Shown: positions 1,626-45,958 of the stretch, piece by piece
How positions within the stretch are numbered: position 1 is the first letter of the stretch
How the letters are laid out: every line of letters begins with the position of its first letter
Translations under genes and position numbers: made by a program
Notes under the pieces: generated by a model
What the model saw: the letters and a program-made list of their open reading frames with translations, nothing else
Databases searched by the model: none
What the model was told of the DNA's origin: nothing
Sequence record: PX104378.1
Length of the DNA stretch: 64,000 nt
DNA from: a phage
Reading direction: 5' to 3' (one strand)

Positions 1626-2660
1626 CTAACTTTTTGCGCTATTTACTTCGGCTAAAAGTTCATCAGAAATACGCTTGACCGCCGCAAGTTCATCCGGTTC
1701 TAGGTTTTGTTCTTCCAGATATTCGTAAACCATTTGAATAGTGCTTTTAACCTCAATAACACCAGTTTCCTGTGATGCGCTACTCTCCAGCTTATGGACC
1801 ACTTTTAGCTTGTGTACAACGGCCTCTAACGCGCTTTCTAACTTAGTTAACCCATTATCAGCGACCGTTGCGATAAGACGCACACTAAGCCCCTTATAGC
1901 GTTCTACATCGATTTTATCATCTGACGGGTAAGTGATACGCACATGATAAGTTTTGTCATTCTGGATAAACTCTTTTTTGTGTGTATCGGTATCGAATAC
2001 CCAAAAACCACGCGGATCGTTTTCGTCACCAGCCGTTAGTGTGTATGGTGTACCGATATACGTTACGTTACCGCCATCGCTGATAGTATGAAAGTGACCA
2101 GAAAACACTTCACGATATTTCTTGAGGAAGTCCGCGCTATAACCTTCGGATTTTAGCCCTTTATAGAAATAGTAACCAGACAATTCCCAATGGCCTACAC
2201 AATATTCGCTGAATGAGTTTTGAATAAACTCTAAAATCTCTGATTTATTGTCATCACAAAACCACGGGAACAGATCAAATGATACACCATCAAAGGTGAC
2301 TGTTTCCGGTTTATCAATAACCTTAATGCAATCATACTGGCTTAACACTTCACGCGGTGCGTTAGGCTGGATCTTGTTTCGTTTAAACATATCATGATTC
2401 CCGACCGTGGTATAACAAGTAATACCAGCCTCTTCCAGTAGCGGGATAATTTTCGTTCTATTAAAACGCATAGTTGCATGTGTGATTGCTTTTCGGCAAT
2501 CAAACCAGTCCCCTGTCTGAATCCATGCCTTAATATTATGTTTTTTTGAATAATCGACTGCCTTTTTAATAGTATCAAGAATATACTCATGTATCCACGG
2601 ATCATCGTTGCCGATACCAGTATGCAGATCACCTAAAAGCAAAATTTTCATATTATACAT
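1626..2660 (-). CDS. 47: gp47 recombination endonuclease subunit (Mre11/SbcD-like phosphoesterase)
   Basis: Translation (KILLLGDLHTG..GDWFD..GNHD..GHFH..GDENDPRGFW) aligns along its length with remembered T4 gp47; AGGAGA RBS upstream of ATG. Confidence 0.9.
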   Translation of the reverse strand: MYNMKILLLGDLHTGIGNDDPWIHEYILDTIKKAVDYSKKHNIKAWIQTGDWFDCRKAITHATMRFNRTKIIPLLEEAGITCYTTVGNHDMFKRNKIQPNAPREVLSQYDCIKVIDKPETVTFDGVSFDLFPWFCDDNKSEILEFIQNSFSEYCVGHWELSGYYFYKGLKSEGYSADFLKKYREVFSGHFHTISDGGNVTYIGTPYTLTAGDENDPRGFWVFDTDTHKKEFIQNDKTYHVRITYPSDDKIDVERYKGLSVRLIATVADNGLTKLESALEAVVHKLKVVHKLESSASQETGVIEVKSTIQMVYEYLEEQNLEPDELAAVKRISDELLAEVNSAKS

Positions 2661-2666
2661 AATCTC

Positions 2667-3221
2667 CTAAAAATTTTTAACACCATATTCACCAAAATAA
2701 AGATCAACCGCTTTGTCATAAGCTCTAGCCGCATCTTCTTCGTTGACATAATACCCAAGAGATATTAGTTTATCATTATTTCGTATTCTTGCAACCCATT
2801 TCTTCGTATGTTTATGCCAGCTAACTCCTTTATACTTGCTTGCTTTATTCTTGTACTTTCCAACGTTACAAGCATTTTTCTTTGCGTCGGACTCTCTAAG
2901 ATTGCGCGGTGCGTTGTTTAAAGGATTTCGGTCTATATGATCTATAATTTCTGGTTGTGTTCCATGCTCAAGAAACCATACAACACGATGTACATATGGC
3001 TTTAAAACCCTCCCATTATCCATAACGATTGCAATTTGGAGATGATCCTGACTTTTAAAAGTTTTTACTTTATCTCCTGCCTTATAAAACTTTCCTTCGT
3101 AATTCTTTCCTCCGGCTCGGCTATTCTTTAAATGATAAAGAATACCCTCATCGTCATGTCTATATCTTTCTCTTATAATTCGTTGCGTTTCTTCATCCCA
3201 CAATTTGGAACGTCTACTCAT
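2667..3221 (-). CDS. HNH homing endonuclease with C-terminal AP2-type DNA-binding domain
   Basis: HNH motif HIDRNPLNNAPRNLRE and AP2-like segment YKGVSWHKHTKKWVARIR..LGYY..EEDAARAYDKA; GAGAGGAAGA RBS. Confidence 0.75.
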   Translation of the reverse strand: MSRRSKLWDEETQRIIRERYRHDDEGILYHLKNSRAGGKNYEGKFYKAGDKVKTFKSQDHLQIAIVMDNGRVLKPYVHRVVWFLEHGTQPEIIDHIDRNPLNNAPRNLRESDAKKNACNVGKYKNKASKYKGVSWHKHTKKWVARIRNNDKLISLGYYVNEEDAARAYDKAVDLYFGEYGVKNF

Positions 3222-40469: not shown

Positions 40470-41060
40470 TTACTTTCTAAAAGCAGGGTGCATAGCTTTA
40501 ATACCTTCCACCCGCTGACGATCCGCCGCCTGAATTGCAGGGCGAGGAACGATCAGTTGACCATCACGTTCAATGCTCATTGTTTTAAATGGAAGAATTG
40601 CAGTACATACCAGAGATTCATGCATATCATCGGTGTATGTTAACTCAAGTTCCCCCAATTGTGAACACCAACAACCATAAAAGTTAAAGGTGCATACAAT
40701 GTTACGGCGTTCATTGTCCATCATGTGAACTTGAACGGCTTCCGGCATTGAATCCTTCCACGCAGTGGAGTTACCGTTATTGTAGTCTACTATAGAAAGC
40801 ATCCATGTGTAAAGGTTTAGATAGCTTTCCAAATGCTCATCGACAATAAACCGGACTACCAACGGGTCAAACTCTACATGACTAGACGGATAATCAGCGA
40901 CCGCCAAACCATATTGACCAGCAACTTGCTTAGTCGGTGGAATGGTTATAGCAGGAAGTGTAACACCTTGAGCATTTAAAGTAAAGCCTTTTGTTAGTTG
41001 TCCATCTGGAATATTGATCTGCCAGTTGCTAGGGTTAGCATAGTTAAAGAGATTAGACAT
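40470..41060 (-). CDS. 3: gp3-like tail completion / sheath stabiliser protein
   Basis: Assigned mainly by position between genes 1 and 2 and size (196 aa); sequence similarity not verified from memory. Confidence 0.6.
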   Translation of the reverse strand: MSNLFNYANPSNWQINIPDGQLTKGFTLNAQGVTLPAITIPPTKQVAGQYGLAVADYPSSHVEFDPLVVRFIVDEHLESYLNLYTWMLSIVDYNNGNSTAWKDSMPEAVQVHMMDNERRNIVCTFNFYGCWCSQLGELELTYTDDMHESLVCTAILPFKTMSIERDGQLIVPRPAIQAADRQRVEGIKAMHPAFRK

Positions 41061-41249
41061 TACTGATTCCTCAAATGAAAATATTTATTAACAATTGTCG
41101 CTTTGCGACGTGCCGTAGGCACTGACTACTTTTTAACCGAAACAAATTTTTATTATTCTAAAGATCTTTCTTCGTTTTGGTTATGTTTTAACCAATAACT
41201 ATATTTTTATACAGTAATAAATAAAACGGGTACTATACGAGGACTTCTT

Positions 41250-41504
41250 ATGACAGAAGACATTTTGTTAAAACTCTATGATCGTTTGGACAACGAATTG
41301 GCAACATTGCGGGGTGAAGTTCTCTATTTGTCTAAATGCAATACAGATCTGCTTAAGCAGATTGCAGAAAGGGATGACCAAATAAAATCCCTTTCAGGTG
41401 CATTACGTGATCGCGACAAGGCATTAGAGATTTTACAGCGTGTTACCAATAAGGAAGAATTAAAAGACTTCTTGCATGGTTATGCTCATGCTATCGATCT
41501 ATAA
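41250..41504 (+). CDS. hypothetical coiled-coil protein (84 aa)
   Basis: Plus-strand ORF with GAGGA RBS inside the minus-strand block, followed by a bidirectional terminator. Confidence 0.5.
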   Translation: MTEDILLKLYDRLDNELATLRGEVLYLSKCNTDLLKQIAERDDQIKSLSGALRDRDKALEILQRVTNKEELKDFLHGYAHAIDL

Positions 41505-41511
41505 TAAAAAA

Positions 41512-41530
41512 AGCCCGTCATTGACGGGCT
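41512..41530. terminator. bidirectional intrinsic terminator between plus-strand ORF 41250-41504 and gp2
   Basis: Hairpin AGCCCGTCA/TGACGGGCT flanked by A-run on one side and T-rich on the other. Confidence 0.65.
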
Positions 41531-41535
41531 TAATC

Positions 41536-42357
41536 TTATGCATCCTTCCAAACTTTCCTTGCGTCGTATTTCTTGCCTTTTGACATAAACTGATATGTAG
41601 GCATATAGATAATATTGCTCCAGTCTTTCGGGCTAATCTCAACAAGTTTTGTTTTAATGTGTCCTGGTAGATATGCTTTGATCATGTGGTCACTTCCACG
41701 CATACCTTTTACATCGCTCCATTTGATTTTTAAGCGTGTTTTATTGCTCAAGGTAGGAGTAGATGCATATTGCTTTAAAAGTGCTTCTAGAAACTGCTGA
41801 CGGGCTTTAGGCGTTACATAGTGTAAGTTAAGACCCAGCATTGCAGTATTACCCGCCTTTGTCTTAGAATCACCCAGACAAATGATCAGCGGGAAAACAT
41901 CCCAATATGGCAAAGTGTCTTTATACTTCGCATCATACATAAAGGTATAGATTCGCCCTACTTGCGGTTTTACAATCTGGTGTCCCTTTATTCCCGCTTT
42001 TATTGTTTTAGTAAACCACTCCTGTGATTTTTCTTTAGGACGACTCTTTGATACAGCACGCATAGACGCACGAAAATCATTAATCATCATCATTGCGCGT
42101 TGCTGCTTATTGAGACCCTTTGCACCTTTCCCTTTTAGTTTTTCAACTTCTATAGCTGTTTTAATTTCGCTGGCATAACGAGACATACTTTTAGTGAAAG
42201 TCGCATAGGCTATTCCCTTAGAATCTGCAAATGCTTTAGCTGTCATGCCTTTGGCTTTTGCTTTCGCAAATTCTACACCCAATTCGACCCACTGTTTAGA
42301 CTTTCGTTTTTGGGGAGACGGCTTTTCGTCTTCTGTGATTATTTCAAATACGCTCAT
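41536..42357 (-). CDS. 2: gp2 DNA end protector protein
   Basis: 273 aa vs T4 274 aa; synteny 3-2-4; similarity recalled for the central YDAKYKDTLPYWD-like region. Confidence 0.85.
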   Translation of the reverse strand: MSVFEIITEDEKPSPQKRKSKQWVELGVEFAKAKAKGMTAKAFADSKGIAYATFTKSMSRYASEIKTAIEVEKLKGKGAKGLNKQQRAMMMINDFRASMRAVSKSRPKEKSQEWFTKTIKAGIKGHQIVKPQVGRIYTFMYDAKYKDTLPYWDVFPLIICLGDSKTKAGNTAMLGLNLHYVTPKARQQFLEALLKQYASTPTLSNKTRLKIKWSDVKGMRGSDHMIKAYLPGHIKTKLVEISPKDWSNIIYMPTYQFMSKGKKYDARKVWKDA

Positions 42358-42368
42358 AATATTATCCT

Positions 42369-42842
42369 CTATTTGTTAAGCCCTTTAAAGCCAAATACTT
42401 TCTTTAATGCATGTTCGGTTATGATCTTAAACTCCATGTTATGCTTTTGGCACAATTTCACGGCAGCTAACCATTTTTCAGTATTTTTTGTGTACGTCCA
42501 TACTTCATGCATATACCGTTGCTTTGTCTTCGCGGTCATTCTTTTTGGCTTTTCTGGTGGTCTTGTCTCTTTAGCTGGTTTAACTTCCCATAAATGCTCC
42601 TTACCATCATCAAACTTAACGTAAAAATCCATAAAGTATCTGTGTCTTTTTCCGTCTGTTGATGACTCATAAGGAATTACTACGGTCTCTGATCCCCATT
42701 TTGCAACTCTAGGATTGCGGTCTAAAAATTTCATTATATGTAATTCCCAACTTGACCTGTAGACGATTTTTTTCAGGTCGCCTTTATACTTCTCCGGGTT
42801 TTCAGGTCTATATTTACCCTTATATGTGTTGCAATTACCCAT
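42369..42842 (-). CDS. 4: gp4 head completion protein
   Basis: KYKGDLKKIVYRSSWE..VVIPYESS..RHRYFMDFYVKF..LWEVKPAKETRPPEKPKRMT parallels T4 gp4. Confidence 0.85.
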   Translation of the reverse strand: MGNCNTYKGKYRPENPEKYKGDLKKIVYRSSWELHIMKFLDRNPRVAKWGSETVVIPYESSTDGKRHRYFMDFYVKFDDGKEHLWEVKPAKETRPPEKPKRMTAKTKQRYMHEVWTYTKNTEKWLAAVKLCQKHNMEFKIITEHALKKVFGFKGLNK

Positions 42843-43537
42843 TATACCACCTTCTTCTTGCAGTTGTCACCATGCCATCTAACATAATTTCCCTGATTGG
42901 CTGTTTTTCCACAATGAGGACAGGTGAAATACGGACGAGACTTTGACAATTCACTATATTTTTGTTTCATTTCTGGCGTGTTATGAATACGTTTCCATTT
43001 CTCTACGTTTTCTTGTGACAACTTTCTACCCTTACCCGCTTTAGAGATGTTGTCTCTCCATTCTTGTGTAATTTCTCTTGACGCAATATTTCTTTTATGT
43101 TCTTCTGTAAACACTCTACCTTTTAATGAAGCAGATAATTTCTGTCGATGTTCCTCAGATAATTTAATTCCTTTTCTCTTTCCTTTAGTTGCTTCTGATA
43201 TTCTGCGTCTAGTCTCTTCGGATCTTTTTCTTCCTGTATGAAATTTTCTTGAAGTCTCGACCGCAAGTTTTCTTACCCACTCAAATTGTTTATTGTTATA
43301 GTTGGTAGACCCCATCAATATTTTCGCCGCATGTACAATTCCGTGATGTGTTGGATGCATTTTTGCTAAAAGTTGATGAGCAACAAAATGTTCAGACCCC
43401 GTTAATTCAACTATATTTTCTGGACTATCATCGCCTCCCATACAACGAGGAATAATATGATGTTTTTCTTTATATCCGTCAAGCGTTCTATGCTTTGCGC
43501 GTTCAATTAATCGATCATAATGTTTTTGATAGTCCAT
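42842..43537 (-). CDS. HNH homing endonuclease (HNH + NUMOD-like repeats + C-terminal zinc finger)
   Basis: HNH signature EKHHIIPRCMGGDDSPENIVELTGSEH, basic repeat region, CPHCG..C tail; stop overlaps gp4 start (TAATG). Confidence 0.8.
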   Translation of the reverse strand: MDYQKHYDRLIERAKHRTLDGYKEKHHIIPRCMGGDDSPENIVELTGSEHFVAHQLLAKMHPTHHGIVHAAKILMGSTNYNNKQFEWVRKLAVETSRKFHTGRKRSEETRRRISEATKGKRKGIKLSEEHRQKLSASLKGRVFTEEHKRNIASREITQEWRDNISKAGKGRKLSQENVEKWKRIHNTPEMKQKYSELSKSRPYFTCPHCGKTANQGNYVRWHGDNCKKKVV

Positions 43538-43552
43538 TTTAGCACCCTTTAT

Positions 43553-43560
43553 TATAAATA
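43553..43560 (+). promoter_or_regulatory. T4-type late promoter TATAAATA for gene 53
   Basis: Exact TATAAATA 32 nt upstream of gp53 ATG at the start of the plus-strand late block. Confidence 0.7.
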
Positions 43561-43592
43561 CATAATACTATTTATCAATTGAGGGTGCTAAA

Positions 43593-44147
43593 ATGCTCTT
43601 TTCTTTCTTCCCTGCCATTGAATACAACGGCAAGATGATTACTGACATTGTGCGCAATTACCGCGCATATTTCAACGCAATAATTTCTGATTATAACATA
43701 CAAACATATTACATTCAAGGTAGTCCACGACCGGAACAAGTTGCATATGAAGTATACGGAAACCAGCAACTTTATTGGATCTTGCTGATGCTTAATGACG
43801 TATACGACCCGTTCCATGACTGGATCACCGATCAAGAGACAGCATATGAGTCAGCCGAACAGCGATATGCAAATGTAGGAGGAAATCAAGTATTATACCA
43901 CGTTGATATTGACGGAAACAAGTATTGGAATCTTACCGAATATCCGAAAGGATCAAGCAATTGGTATGATAAAGGAGATATTCATCATCGTCATTTGCAG
44001 TTTCATGGTGCATTATCGGCAGTAGACACTCTGGAAGATGCGATTCTCCGCAATGAGGAACGACGCAAGATCAAGATCATAGATCCTACACAAATTAAAC
44101 AATTTATTAACGCATTCATTCGAGAAATGGAAAAGGCTGATGTGTAA
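43593..44147 (+). CDS. 53: gp53 baseplate wedge protein
   Basis: MLFSFFPAIEY..YYIQGSPRPEQVAYEVYGNQQLYWILLMLNDVYDP parallels T4 gp53; TATAAATA late promoter 32 nt upstream. Confidence 0.9.
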   Translation: MLFSFFPAIEYNGKMITDIVRNYRAYFNAIISDYNIQTYYIQGSPRPEQVAYEVYGNQQLYWILLMLNDVYDPFHDWITDQETAYESAEQRYANVGGNQVLYHVDIDGNKYWNLTEYPKGSSNWYDKGDIHHRHLQFHGALSAVDTLEDAILRNEERRKIKIIDPTQIKQFINAFIREMEKADV

Positions 44148-44158
44148 GGTGATTAATT

Positions 44159-45958
44159 ATGCTAATGTTTAATAACTCCGTTAAATGGTTTACCGGAATT
44201 GTAGAAAACAGAGAAGACCCATTAATGTTAGGCCGAGTTCAGGTTAGGATTCATGGTATACATCCTTCGCTATCCGCACACGGTGACATTCAAGGTCTTC
44301 CAACCGAAGATCTATTATGGATTACGCCAGTGCAAGATATTACAAGCGCGGCGATCTCCGGTATAGGTCAAAGCCCTACTGGTATTGTTGAAGGTTCAAT
44401 GGTATTTGGTTTGGCTTTAGATGAACGTTATTTAAACTGCGTTATTCTGGGTACTATTGCCGGACAATATACAGAGAAACCACTCACTACAGAAGGTTTT
44501 TGCGACCCTTCTGGTGCATATCCTCGTTATATTGGTAATGATGTTAATATTCTTGCTCGTGGCGGTATTAACCCAGAAACCGGACAAACAACAAAACCTG
44601 ATAGTGTCTATATTCGAGATGAAAACACTGGGGTTGCAGTAAATCCAGACGACGAGCCATTAGACCAAATTCCGGTTGACGATAACCCAGAATACACAAT
44701 AGAAAAAATGCTGCGGGGCGATGAGGGATATCGCGAGAAATGGTATCTTGATTCAGAAGGATATCCGACAATAGGCATCGGGCATTTGATCATTTATAAG
44801 AAAACCAGTGATCTGGGTATTATCAATAATGAACTTTCTAAGCTGGTAGGGCGTGAAGTTACAAACGGAAGACTTACAGCCGAAGAAGTTAGTAAAGTAT
44901 TTGCTGACGATATAGAAAAGACTCGTCGTGATATGCGCAAACATCCACGAATTGCACCTGTCTATAATAAGTGTAATGCTTCTCGTCGTATGGCATTAGA
45001 AAATATGGCGTTTCAAATGGGTGTTGGTGGATTGGGTAAATTTAAGAATAGTCTTGCTGCAATGTTAGCGGAAGAATGGAAACAAGCCTATGATGGATTA
45101 CGTCAATCTGTATGGGCTAACCAAACTCCAGGACGTTCAAGCCGTGTATCTAAAATTATTTTAACTGGTAACTTAGAATCATATGGCGTAATTGCTCCAA
45201 AGAAAGAGGAATCAATTTCGGATGATCCGCGAGCACGTTTGAGAAATGCCCGTATTGCTGCCTATAAGACGCAGAGAGCAGAAGAAGACCCAGAAGCACC
45301 GTTTACCCCACAAGACACACGAATCATGTTTAAAGAGCCTAAGAGTTCGTATTCTGCAAGGTATCCTTATAACCATGTGTACGAGTCAGAGAGCGGTCAT
45401 ATTATCGAGATTGATGATACTCCTTCTCACGAACGTTATCACCGCAAACATCCTTCTGGTACATTTGAAGAAACCAGACCGGACGGAACGAGGGTAGAAA
45501 AGATTGAAGGTGATGACTATTTGATCGTTAAGCAAGGCCGCAAAGTCAACGTTAAAGGAAATCTGCAAGTTGTTGTTGAAGGTGACGCGCAAGTTTATTA
45601 TATGGGTAATGTAATGCAAACCGTTGATGGAAACGTTACTGAATTTGTTCGTGGTAATGTTAATCAGACCGTCGAGGGTACTGCAAATATGCATGTTGTC
45701 GGTGATGTTATCGCACAGCTTGACGCTAATTTGACGGCTAACGTCAAGGGTAATGCTGAATTAATGATCGAGGGTAACACTACCGAGACAATTAAAGGTA
45801 ACTATGATTTAACCGTTGAGGGTAATTTTAATATGACCGTCAATGGCACTAAATCAGATCAGGTTAATGGTGACTGGTCCCGTAATTGTGGTGCAAGCGT
45901 TAAAGATATTGCATCCGGTACAGTTAAAATTGATGGTAGCCGTATTGATCTTGGGTGA
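44159..45958 (+). CDS. 5: gp5 baseplate hub subunit / tail lysozyme
   Basis: N-terminal OB-fold region like T4 gp5, lysozyme signature LDSEGYPTIGIGHLI, C-terminal VxGxxxxxV beta-helix repeats. Confidence 0.95.
   Translation: MLMFNNSVKWFTGIVENREDPLMLGRVQVRIHGIHPSLSAHGDIQGLPTEDLLWITPVQDITSAAISGIGQSPTGIVEGSMVFGLALDERYLNCVILGTIAGQYTEKPLTTEGFCDPSGAYPRYIGNDVNILARGGINPETGQTTKPDSVYIRDENTGVAVNPDDEPLDQIPVDDNPEYTIEKMLRGDEGYREKWYLDSEGYPTIGIGHLIIYKKTSDLGIINNELSKLVGREVTNGRLTAEEVSKVFADDIEKTRRDMRKHPRIAPVYNKCNASRRMALENMAFQMGVGGLGKFKNSLAAMLAEEWKQAYDGLRQSVWANQTPGRSSRVSKIILTGNLESYGVIAPKKEESISDDPRARLRNARIAAYKTQRAEEDPEAPFTPQDTRIMFKEPKSSYSARYPYNHVYESESGHIIEIDDTPSHERYHRKHPSGTFEETRPDGTRVEKIEGDDYLIVKQGRKVNVKGNLQVVVEGDAQVYYMGNVMQTVDGNVTEFVRGNVNQTVEGTANMHVVGDVIAQLDANLTANVKGNAELMIEGNTTETIKGNYDLTVEGNFNMTVNGTKSDQVNGDWSRNCGASVKDIASGTVKIDGSRIDLG

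Follow-up and report, generated by a model that had tools for sequence, protein, structure and literature searches.

An HNH endonuclease gene between genes 4 and 53

The stretch of DNA considered here, 64,000 nucleotides (nt) of phage sequence (record PX104378.1; hereafter the window, counted from its first letter), comes from a T4-type phage of the genus Krischvirus (RB49-like), and its positions 41500-45000 match phage Brandy at 99.0% identity and RB49 and many other phages at 97-98%. Our subject is a minus-strand open reading frame (ORF) at 42842-43537, which starts with ATG and encodes 231 amino acids in the ORF list of the window. An initial annotation made from the letters of the window had described it as an HNH homing endonuclease gene lying between genes 4 and 53, and the coordinates and length it gave agree with ours. 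Gene 4 (42369-42842, minus strand) encodes a 157-residue head-completion protein with a TnsA-like endonuclease fold (PHROG 218 'head closure', 3.8e-61; PF08722, 4.2e-21), and gene 53 (43593-44147, plus strand; Pfam Phage_gp53, 4.4e-59), on the right flank, encodes a baseplate wedge protein. The annotation had also noted that the stop codon of the HNH ORF overlaps the start of gene 4 as TAATG, which is read directly at 42844-42840 (plus-strand CAT at 42840-42842 and TTA at 42842-42844), and that the HNH start lies near a late promoter of gene 53, where an exact TATAAATA, the T4 late-promoter octamer, is located between the two ATGs, at 15 nt from that of the HNH ORF and 33 nt from that of gp53.

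Family and domain organization of the HNH protein

Sequence comparison identifies the ORF as a freestanding homing-type endonuclease gene of the T4 Mob family, MobE-like in character and patchy in its presence among relatives. PHROG 655 ('homing endonuclease') matches the whole length of the protein (6.7e-65), relatives are present in 1124 records of the phage collection, and a tblastn search that aligned 99% of the query with the mobE locus between nrdA and nrdB of T4, T6, and LZ7 gave identities of 38.7-40.9% (E 1e-36 to 2e-38). Among Pfam models, NUMOD3 (PF07460) scores 29.6 bits against a cut-off of 20.4 (E 6.8e-7) at residues 102-120, with a second, weaker stretch. The Pfam HNH models stay below their curated cut-offs (HNH_5, 15.9 bits against 27.5; HNH, 14.5 against 21.4; HNH_4, 13.7 against 22.0), with E values of 0.013-0.064, all at residues 21-43, and two homologs of the family (P0008 and P0048) carry a precomputed PF01844 match. 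Because the HNH models matched only below threshold, the nuclease assignment was checked separately.

In an alignment of 60 homologs, residues E24, H26, H27, G35, N41, E49, and H50 are invariant, and C206, C209, H222, and C226 are at least 90% conserved; all of them are intact in the window. An AlphaFold2 model built on this 60-sequence alignment (mean pLDDT, the predicted local distance difference test, 93.6) places strands at 24-27 and 42-45 and a helix at 47-60, which together form a beta-beta-alpha unit, followed by short helices at 107-117, 128-138, 145-152, 158-168, and 175-185 and by a C-terminal finger (203-221) composed of a beta hairpin at 203-214 and a helix at 215-221. When the family profile was compared with sequences of the Protein Data Bank (PDB), residues 21-50 aligned with the catalytic HNH motif of EcoKMcrA (E 1.4e-4), with weaker alignments to a group II intron maturase and to Cas8-HNH. 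The whole-chain fold search was weak: the helical repeats draw unrelated helical-repeat proteins, and Cas8-HNH, GVE2 HNH, and Gme HNH appear only as weak local matches. The zinc-finger region has weak sequence matches to C2H2 fingers, a single-sequence search of PDB sequences returned nothing useful (collagen adhesin and C2H2 fingers), and an NCBIfam scan gave no meaningful family for the protein.

Taken over the chain, these data define an HNH catalytic core at residues 24-54 (43376-43468, minus strand; E24, H26, H27, N41, H50, and H54), NUMOD3-type helical repeats at residues ~102-185 (42983-43234) that form a putative DNA-binding module, and a C-terminal CCHC zinc finger (42860-42922; C206, C209, H222, and C226). 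On sequence and model, then, the description in the initial annotation of an HNH endonuclease with NUMOD-like repeats and a C-terminal zinc finger is confirmed; its homing-type identity is borne out by PHROG 655, the mobE homology, and the alignment, and the motif residues, whose mutation would have spoken against it, are all present. An HNH protein of the packaging type, found as a neighbor of terminase genes, was considered and rejected on context and family. The kind of gene is already known, and sister genomes already label it so (ELT4, MIZ2, MIZ3, and MIZ6 as 'homing endonuclease' and PTE-Eco09 as 'endonuclease'); the element itself is an uncharacterised new example of the Mob type, to which the present analysis adds a cassette structure, a take-over of the gene 4 start, a lineage specific for one site across genera, and a prediction of the cut site.

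Insertion at the start codon of gene 4

A comparison of the gene 4-53 junction in related phages, suggested by the initial annotation, reveals a real polymorphism of occupied and empty sites in Krischvirus. Of 60 Krischvirus records, which represent ~57-60 genomes, six contain the HNH ORF (Brandy, ELT4, MIZ2, MIZ3, MIZ6, and PTE-Eco09), and the remaining records have a clean shortfall of ~696 nt at the site. The 55 nt between the HNH ATG and the gp53 ATG correspond to the gene 4-53 spacer of the empty-site phages RB49 and UPWr_E1, being identical in the latter, and the control region with the gp53 start shows 0-1 mismatch against empty-site relatives per 100 nt next to the junction. The HNH ATG sits exactly at the former start codon of gene 4 and has taken over the ribosome-binding site AAGGGTGCTAAAATG, from which empty-site genomes start gene 4. 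The ORF is thus located between genes 4 and 53 and is sporadic, as had been claimed, but it was not dropped into the intergenic region: it begins at the ATG of gene 4 and therefore inherits the promoter region of gene 4, its hairpin-guarded ribosome-binding site, and its start codon.

Gene 4 has become the second cistron, and its new initiation region (42840-42853, minus strand) consists of a Shine-Dalgarno (SD) sequence, AAGGTGG, at 42853-42847, a 4-nt spacer, and the TAATG overlap. This SD sequence lies within the last HNH codons and is identical in 5 of 5 aligned carriers. No terminator-like site was found inside the HNH ORF, the first strong one on the same strand following gene 2 (41531-41511), so that HNH, gene 4, and gene 2 likely form one transcription unit that ends at 41511-41531. 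A sigma-70-like site at 42870-42841, in the 3' end of the HNH ORF, was discounted as a promoter of gene 4, since its -10 element overlaps the start codon. Of the suggestion that the insertion may affect expression of both flanking genes, the half concerning gene 4 stands, as this gene has lost its leader, acquired a new SD sequence, and moved to second position; for gp53, the unchanged control region and gene start mean that nothing points to an effect. The arrangement shows how an element can sit atop an essential late gene without harm, by taking the leader and start codon for itself and supplying a replacement ribosome-binding site.

The occupied and empty states share the 55 nt upstream and the ATG, so the junction alone gives no direction to the change, and one could imagine an HNH ORF that was already present in the ancestor of Krischvirus and was lost from most lineages by precise deletion, all the more as HNH genes are widespread at this site across genera (see below). 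We consider this very improbable: it would take many independent in-frame deletions, each restoring gene 4 with a different first 118 nt, and the HNH tree departs from phage taxonomy. The divergence of the carrier tract described next, ~30% in a locus that is otherwise 98-99% identical, fits a foreign import instead.

A gene 4 tract that travels with the HNH ORF

When the window was aligned with four further carriers and eight non-carriers, identity in the flanks was 98-99% everywhere except at 42725-42842 (minus strand), the first 118 nt of gene 4, which correspond to codons 1-40. Against RB49, there are 42 mismatches in nt 1-118 of gene 4 and 11 in nt 119-471; 25 of codons 1-40 differ, giving 11 amino-acid changes, whereas the 11 codons that differ among codons 41-157 are all synonymous (0 nonsynonymous). 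In codons 34-40, 12 of 21 nt are different. A search with the tract found it at ≥98.6% identity in exactly six records, all of them carriers, and at 71-77% identity in 51 HNH-less Krischvirus records, so that the linkage between the carrier tract and the HNH ORF is complete (6 of 6 carriers versus 0 of 51 non-carriers). The initial annotation, which described an insertion, had missed that, by sequence, this insertion goes together with a replacement of gene 4 nt 1-118. Gene 4 of the window remains in frame and differs from the common allele only by substitutions.

The cassette is 99-100% identical among carriers, and the sequence around it follows another pattern. The HNH-less UPWr_E1 has 11 and 28 mismatches to the window in the left and right flanks, respectively, as compared to 25-32 and 46-52 in the carriers ELT4 and MIZ6. 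As the flanks are as close or closer to a non-carrier than to carriers, the unit sits on different backbones. From these alignments, we define the mobile unit as ~815 nt (window ~42725-43537), made up of the HNH ORF and codons 1-40 of gene 4.

A third gene 4 allele occurs in Whisky, JEP8, and G2494 (loci L014, L015, and L013), which have no HNH ORF. It is diverged over ~450 nt, equivalent to window ~42400-42842, has one extra codon, and shares codons 32-41 with the HNH-linked allele; judging from its sequence, this Whisky-type allele might be related to the donor or might be a target with natural resistance.

Where the enzyme would act

Intronless homing always co-converts whatever DNA separates the break from the endonuclease gene, and homing enzymes usually recognize conserved sequence. 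Since co-conversion between break and gene is obligatory, the break is expected at the end of the tract distal to the HNH ORF, ~90-120 nt past the gene 4 ATG. We compared occupied and empty sites in three genera by counting mismatches per 30 nt from the gene 4 ATG. In Krischvirus (window versus UPWr_E1), the counts are 9, 8, 12, and 12, then 0, 1, 0, 2, and so on, without indels in gene 4; in Jiaodavirus (KpV477 versus KP179), they are 11, 11, and 5, then 0, 1, and 6 onward, with indels at nt 50 and 89; and in Tegunavirus (phiR1-RT versus the empty-site locus L037), they are 11, 6, and 10, then 0, 2, and 1 onward, with an indel at nt 94. The diverged tract is ~90 nt long in Jiaodavirus and Tegunavirus, with its end at nt 89-94 of gene 4. 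The HNH ATG of Tegunavirus is preceded by a leader identical to that of gene 4 in the empty genome, the same take-over of the start as in Krischvirus. Gp4 residues 13-41 are conserved across genera, and the region where the tract ends encodes YRSSWE...M.WLD; relatives with an empty site therefore do have a conserved candidate target at the 5' end of gene 4, the lack of which the initial annotation had named as evidence against homing.

The sequence comparisons are best explained by an active or recently active intronless homing cassette whose enzyme would nick or cut ~90-120 nt into gene 4, a reading to which we give a probability of roughly three in four. During co-infection with an HNH-less Krischvirus, the enzyme would nick or cut gene 4 of the recipient ~90-120 nt past the ATG, with codons ~30-40, in the conserved SSWE...M..LD region, as the proposed target. 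Repair by recombination from the carrier genome would then copy everything between the break and the endonuclease gene; on this proposal, such copying is the reason why the diverged tract is always found with the HNH ORF and reaches no further than codon 40. Substitutions such as those in codons 34-40 would, in addition, protect the carrier genome from its own enzyme. What this adds is a concrete prediction, a nick or cut at nt ~90-120 of gene 4 and a co-transferred unit of ~815 nt, and, for phage therapy cocktails that mix Krischvirus and Jiaodavirus, biased marker inheritance is predicted around genes 2-4-53.

T4 MobE offers a precedent, as its gene lies upstream of nrdB, an HNH-dependent nick falls in the 5' region of T2 nrdB, and recombination points map within the first 189 nt of nrdB (PMC2790892). 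The break could instead fall at the insertion point itself, with a recognition site that spans the leader and first codons of gene 4: the insertion would then split the site and by itself confer immunity, and the 118-nt tract would be passive co-conversion from a diverged donor, with no part in immunity. The insertion is indeed exact at the gene 4 ATG in both Krischvirus and Tegunavirus, as if break and insertion point were one, and codons 2-4 of gene 4 are changed in carriers too. We nevertheless find such a target rather unlikely, because characterised Mob enzymes nick away from their own gene, as MobE does in the nrdB 5' region (PMC2790892), and because the tract ends at codon 30-40 in three genera, with a carrier-only +1 indel there in two of them, which is not what randomly placed ends of co-conversion would give.

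The same site in other T4-like genera

Outside Krischvirus, the closest homologs of the HNH protein (41-60% identity) are encoded directly upstream of gene 4 in every case examined. They occur in Tegunavirus (phiR1-RT and TG1), Gaprivervirus (UPEC07), Biquartavirus (avDM2), Tulanevirus (phage 25 and IME13, in which the 53-5-5.1 block is rearranged and the HNH gene still adjoins gene 4), Jiaodavirus (KpV477 and Roth78), Mosugukvirus (PM2, with a truncated HNH gene), Gualtarvirus (PSTRCR_121), Karamvirus (Ent31), and Marfavirus (R3_1), so that the layout is found in at least 10 genera of Straboviridae, Krischvirus included. In most Tevenvirinae, the last HNH codons (..NGL*) overlap the first codons of gene 4 (ATGGCTTATAG) by 11 nt. 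A neighbor-joining tree unites the gene 4-linked HNH proteins in a single group, which divides into two sub-groups at odds with phage taxonomy, Jiaodavirus being represented in both; the nrd-linked MobE proteins form the sister group, and HNH proteins encoded between genes 2 and 3 fall outside. The recurrence of the same cassette layout in at least 10 genera points to a Mob endonuclease lineage whose specificity is for the gene 4 5' end.

Occupied and empty sites also coexist in Jiaodavirus, where a KpV477 query matches 172 records; 36 of these, with a coverage of at least 80%, are in the HNH-carrying state, and ~743 nt are absent from most of the others. The HNH genes of KpV477 and Roth78 are strongly diverged in DNA and belong to different sub-clades, although they occupy the identical site in one genus, which suggests, on their sequences, replacement or independent invasion. 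The PM2 gene (locus L020, 1801-2321) is truncated to 129 amino acids, its zinc-finger end persisting in another frame, and looks like a decaying copy. A gap of ~1 kb between gp53 and gene 4 in loci L025, L032, L039, and L041 was considered as a further insertion and rejected, as it reads as a gp48-like baseplate gene, an assignment made without a family scan.

These distributions also bear on whether the cassette still moves. It might be a defunct or domesticated relic that descends vertically in one sub-lineage and spreads by ordinary recombination, its protein perhaps excluding competitors or working together with gp4. Only six carriers are known in Krischvirus, and they are very similar; endonucleases that have become defunct, for example I-TevIII, are found in T4 itself (PMC2790892); PM2 has a truncated copy; and the HNH gene always adjoins gene 4, whose product has a TnsA-like nuclease fold. 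Against this, at least 12 genomes from 10 genera have a full-length ORF with all its catalytic and zinc-binding residues intact, the Krischvirus cassette sits on different backbones, the two diverged HNH lineages at the same Jiaodavirus site indicate repeated invasion, and most phages lack the gene, which is hence not needed for gp4 function. On balance, a relic seems to us quite unlikely, and an active or recently active homing cassette remains the preferred reading.

A distinct group of Mob-like HNH genes lies at the junction of genes 2 and 3 in several Tevenvirinae, with examples in BW-1, UPEC07, PSTRCR_121, and the locus L043 (positions 2501-3160 of locus L007, 3741-4275 of L017, 3716-4251 of L021, and 2883-3191 of L043); in UPEC07 and PSTRCR_121, HNH genes thus flank the gene 4-2 pair on both sides.

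Comparison with characterised homing endonucleases

The closest counterpart of the window HNH protein is T4 MobE, with which it shares homology over the full length and an organization of N-terminal HNH, NUMOD3 repeats, and C-terminal CxxC...H..C finger. Both genes lie directly upstream of the gene that is targeted (here by prediction), are sporadic among close relatives, are co-inherited with 5' polymorphisms of the downstream gene, and have a one-base stop/start overlap (UAAUG) with a neighbor. MobE differs in its target, which is nrdB and not gene 4, and falls in a separate clade of the tree. Its gene is promoterless, relies on nrdA transcription, is coupled to the upstream gene, and has an internal terminator, whereas the window HNH gene is the first cistron, has taken over the leader and start codon of gene 4, and contains no internal terminator that we could find.

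T4 SegF and SegG, which belong to the GIY-YIG family, make a double-strand cut in the neighboring gene of an endonuclease-less phage, with obligatory co-conversion and marker exclusion (reviewed in PMC2988022). They resemble the window element as freestanding endonuclease genes between conserved genes and differ from it in their family, their double-strand cut, and their loci. In intron-encoded enzymes of the I-HmuI and I-TevIII type, of which I-HmuI is a nickase, an HNH domain is followed by extended modular DNA-binding elements. The window protein shares this order and differs in being encoded by a freestanding gene; no significant match to I-HmuI or I-TevIII appeared in the PDB sequence, profile, and fold searches that were run.

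Frameshifted gene 4 in carriers of other genera

In carriers from Tegunavirus (the independent isolates phiR1-RT and TG1), Mosugukvirus (PM2), and Jiaodavirus (Roth78 and KpV477), gene 4 contains one extra nucleotide at nt 89-94. It is placed at codon ~33, between TGGGAG and an internal ATG and directly behind the codons for the conserved SSWE. In KpV477, a -1 at codon 18 compensates for it, and 13 residues are scrambled. Gene 4 is in frame in the empty-site locus L037 and in KP179, and the best 60 tblastn matches of KP179 gp4 are all in frame and HNH-less. Jiaodavirus annotations agree with this division, as carriers list two 'head closure' pieces and non-carriers list one. The exact frameshifted (TGGGAGCARTTTCATGATG) and intact (TGGGAGCAYTTCATGATG) Jiaodavirus site patterns were not found in the viral contig collection, and the 80 gene 4 loci that we sampled from IMG/VR are biased to intact genes because split genes score lower.

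The conserved Met36/37 has GGGAG 7-11 nt upstream, so the nuclease-like C-terminal domain could come from internal initiation; a +1 slip at UUU-C is a possible alternative route of expression, judging from the sequence. The association between frameshift and HNH gene is a lead that stands outside our verdict on the window, where gene 4 is intact. We tentatively extend it into a wider proposal, while thinking the odds are against it: the HNH gene would make up one mobile cassette with the initial 90-120 nt of gene 4, dispersed over at least 10 genera, targeting codons ~30-40 and carrying its own immunity determinant (substitutions in Krischvirus and a frame-breaking +1 in Tegunavirus, Jiaodavirus, and Mosugukvirus), and the frameshifted phages would recode gp4 or make it in two pieces.

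There is a parallel in the T4-type mobA gene and the 50-nt bypass insert of gene 60, where, in the account of Bonocora et al. (2011) as relayed in bioRxiv 10.1101/2022.08.31.505936, the insert, which travels with mobA, protects the carrier from nicking by MobA. Likewise, the HNH gene of Tegunavirus, Jiaodavirus, and Mosugukvirus comes with a +1 indel at the end of the co-transferred gene 4 tract; the window differs in that its gene 4 is in frame with substitutions only, which are predicted to protect from cleavage. If the wider proposal were true, it would add to mobA and the gene 60 bypass a second example from nature in which a homing endonuclease forces unorthodox expression on an essential gene. 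The frameshifted alleles would matter more if confirmed, as they tie homing-endonuclease immunity to recoding or gene splitting.

The shared divergent control region

The control region shared by the divergent HNH gene and gene 53 (43535-43595) comprises the 55-nt intergenic stretch and an inverted repeat of 14-19 nt, with arms at 43535-43553 and 43577-43595, which spans the SD sequence and ATG of both genes and makes the ribosome-binding site and ATG of gene 53 a mirror image of those of the HNH gene, which had belonged to gene 4. An RNA hairpin can form on either strand (-27.9 and -28.4 kcal/mol; z scores of -6.8 and -7.9). Its loop contains TATAAATA on the plus strand (43553-43560), GATAAATA on the minus strand (43576-43569), and a sigma-70-like TTGATA-16-TATAAT on the minus strand (43578-43551), and transcripts that start inside the loop are without the 5' arm and do not fold. 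The hairpin is also present at empty sites, which implies that the HNH gene inherited it from gene 4.

In several late genes and homing endonuclease genes of T4, a hairpin hides the ribosome-binding site in read-through RNA, and a late promoter lies inside the hairpin (PMC2988022). By analogy, the hairpin in the window, which has the same arrangement, would be predicted to play the same role. The octamer TATAAATA occurs 4 times in the 64-kb window as compared to 6.8 expected by chance, despite the many late structural genes; being rarer than chance and not statistically distinctive, it draws its meaning from position and conservation.

Neighboring genes and minor observations

Gene 2, for the DNA end protector (PHROG 429, 3e-72), follows gene 4 on the minus strand (41511-42357 with its terminator; gp2 at 41536-42357). 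The intrinsic terminator at 41531-41511 consists of the terminator-like site AAGCCCGTCAATGACGGGCTT and a T run. On the other side, gp5 (44159-45958, plus strand) neighbors gp53, whose protein is 100% identical to those of RB49 and Whisky. Gp4 also matches restriction-endonuclease models, more weakly than the TnsA-like endonuclease N-terminal domain (PF08722), and some records name it 'head completion nuclease'. No HNH paralog or GIY-YIG motif was found elsewhere in the 64-kb window.

To the left of ~42000 (window 41000-42000), PTE-Eco09 (locus L003) is 20-50% diverged from the window and has a different gene of 1143 nt in place of the 84-residue ORF at 41250-41504; by sequence, this difference marks another mosaic boundary close to the cassette.

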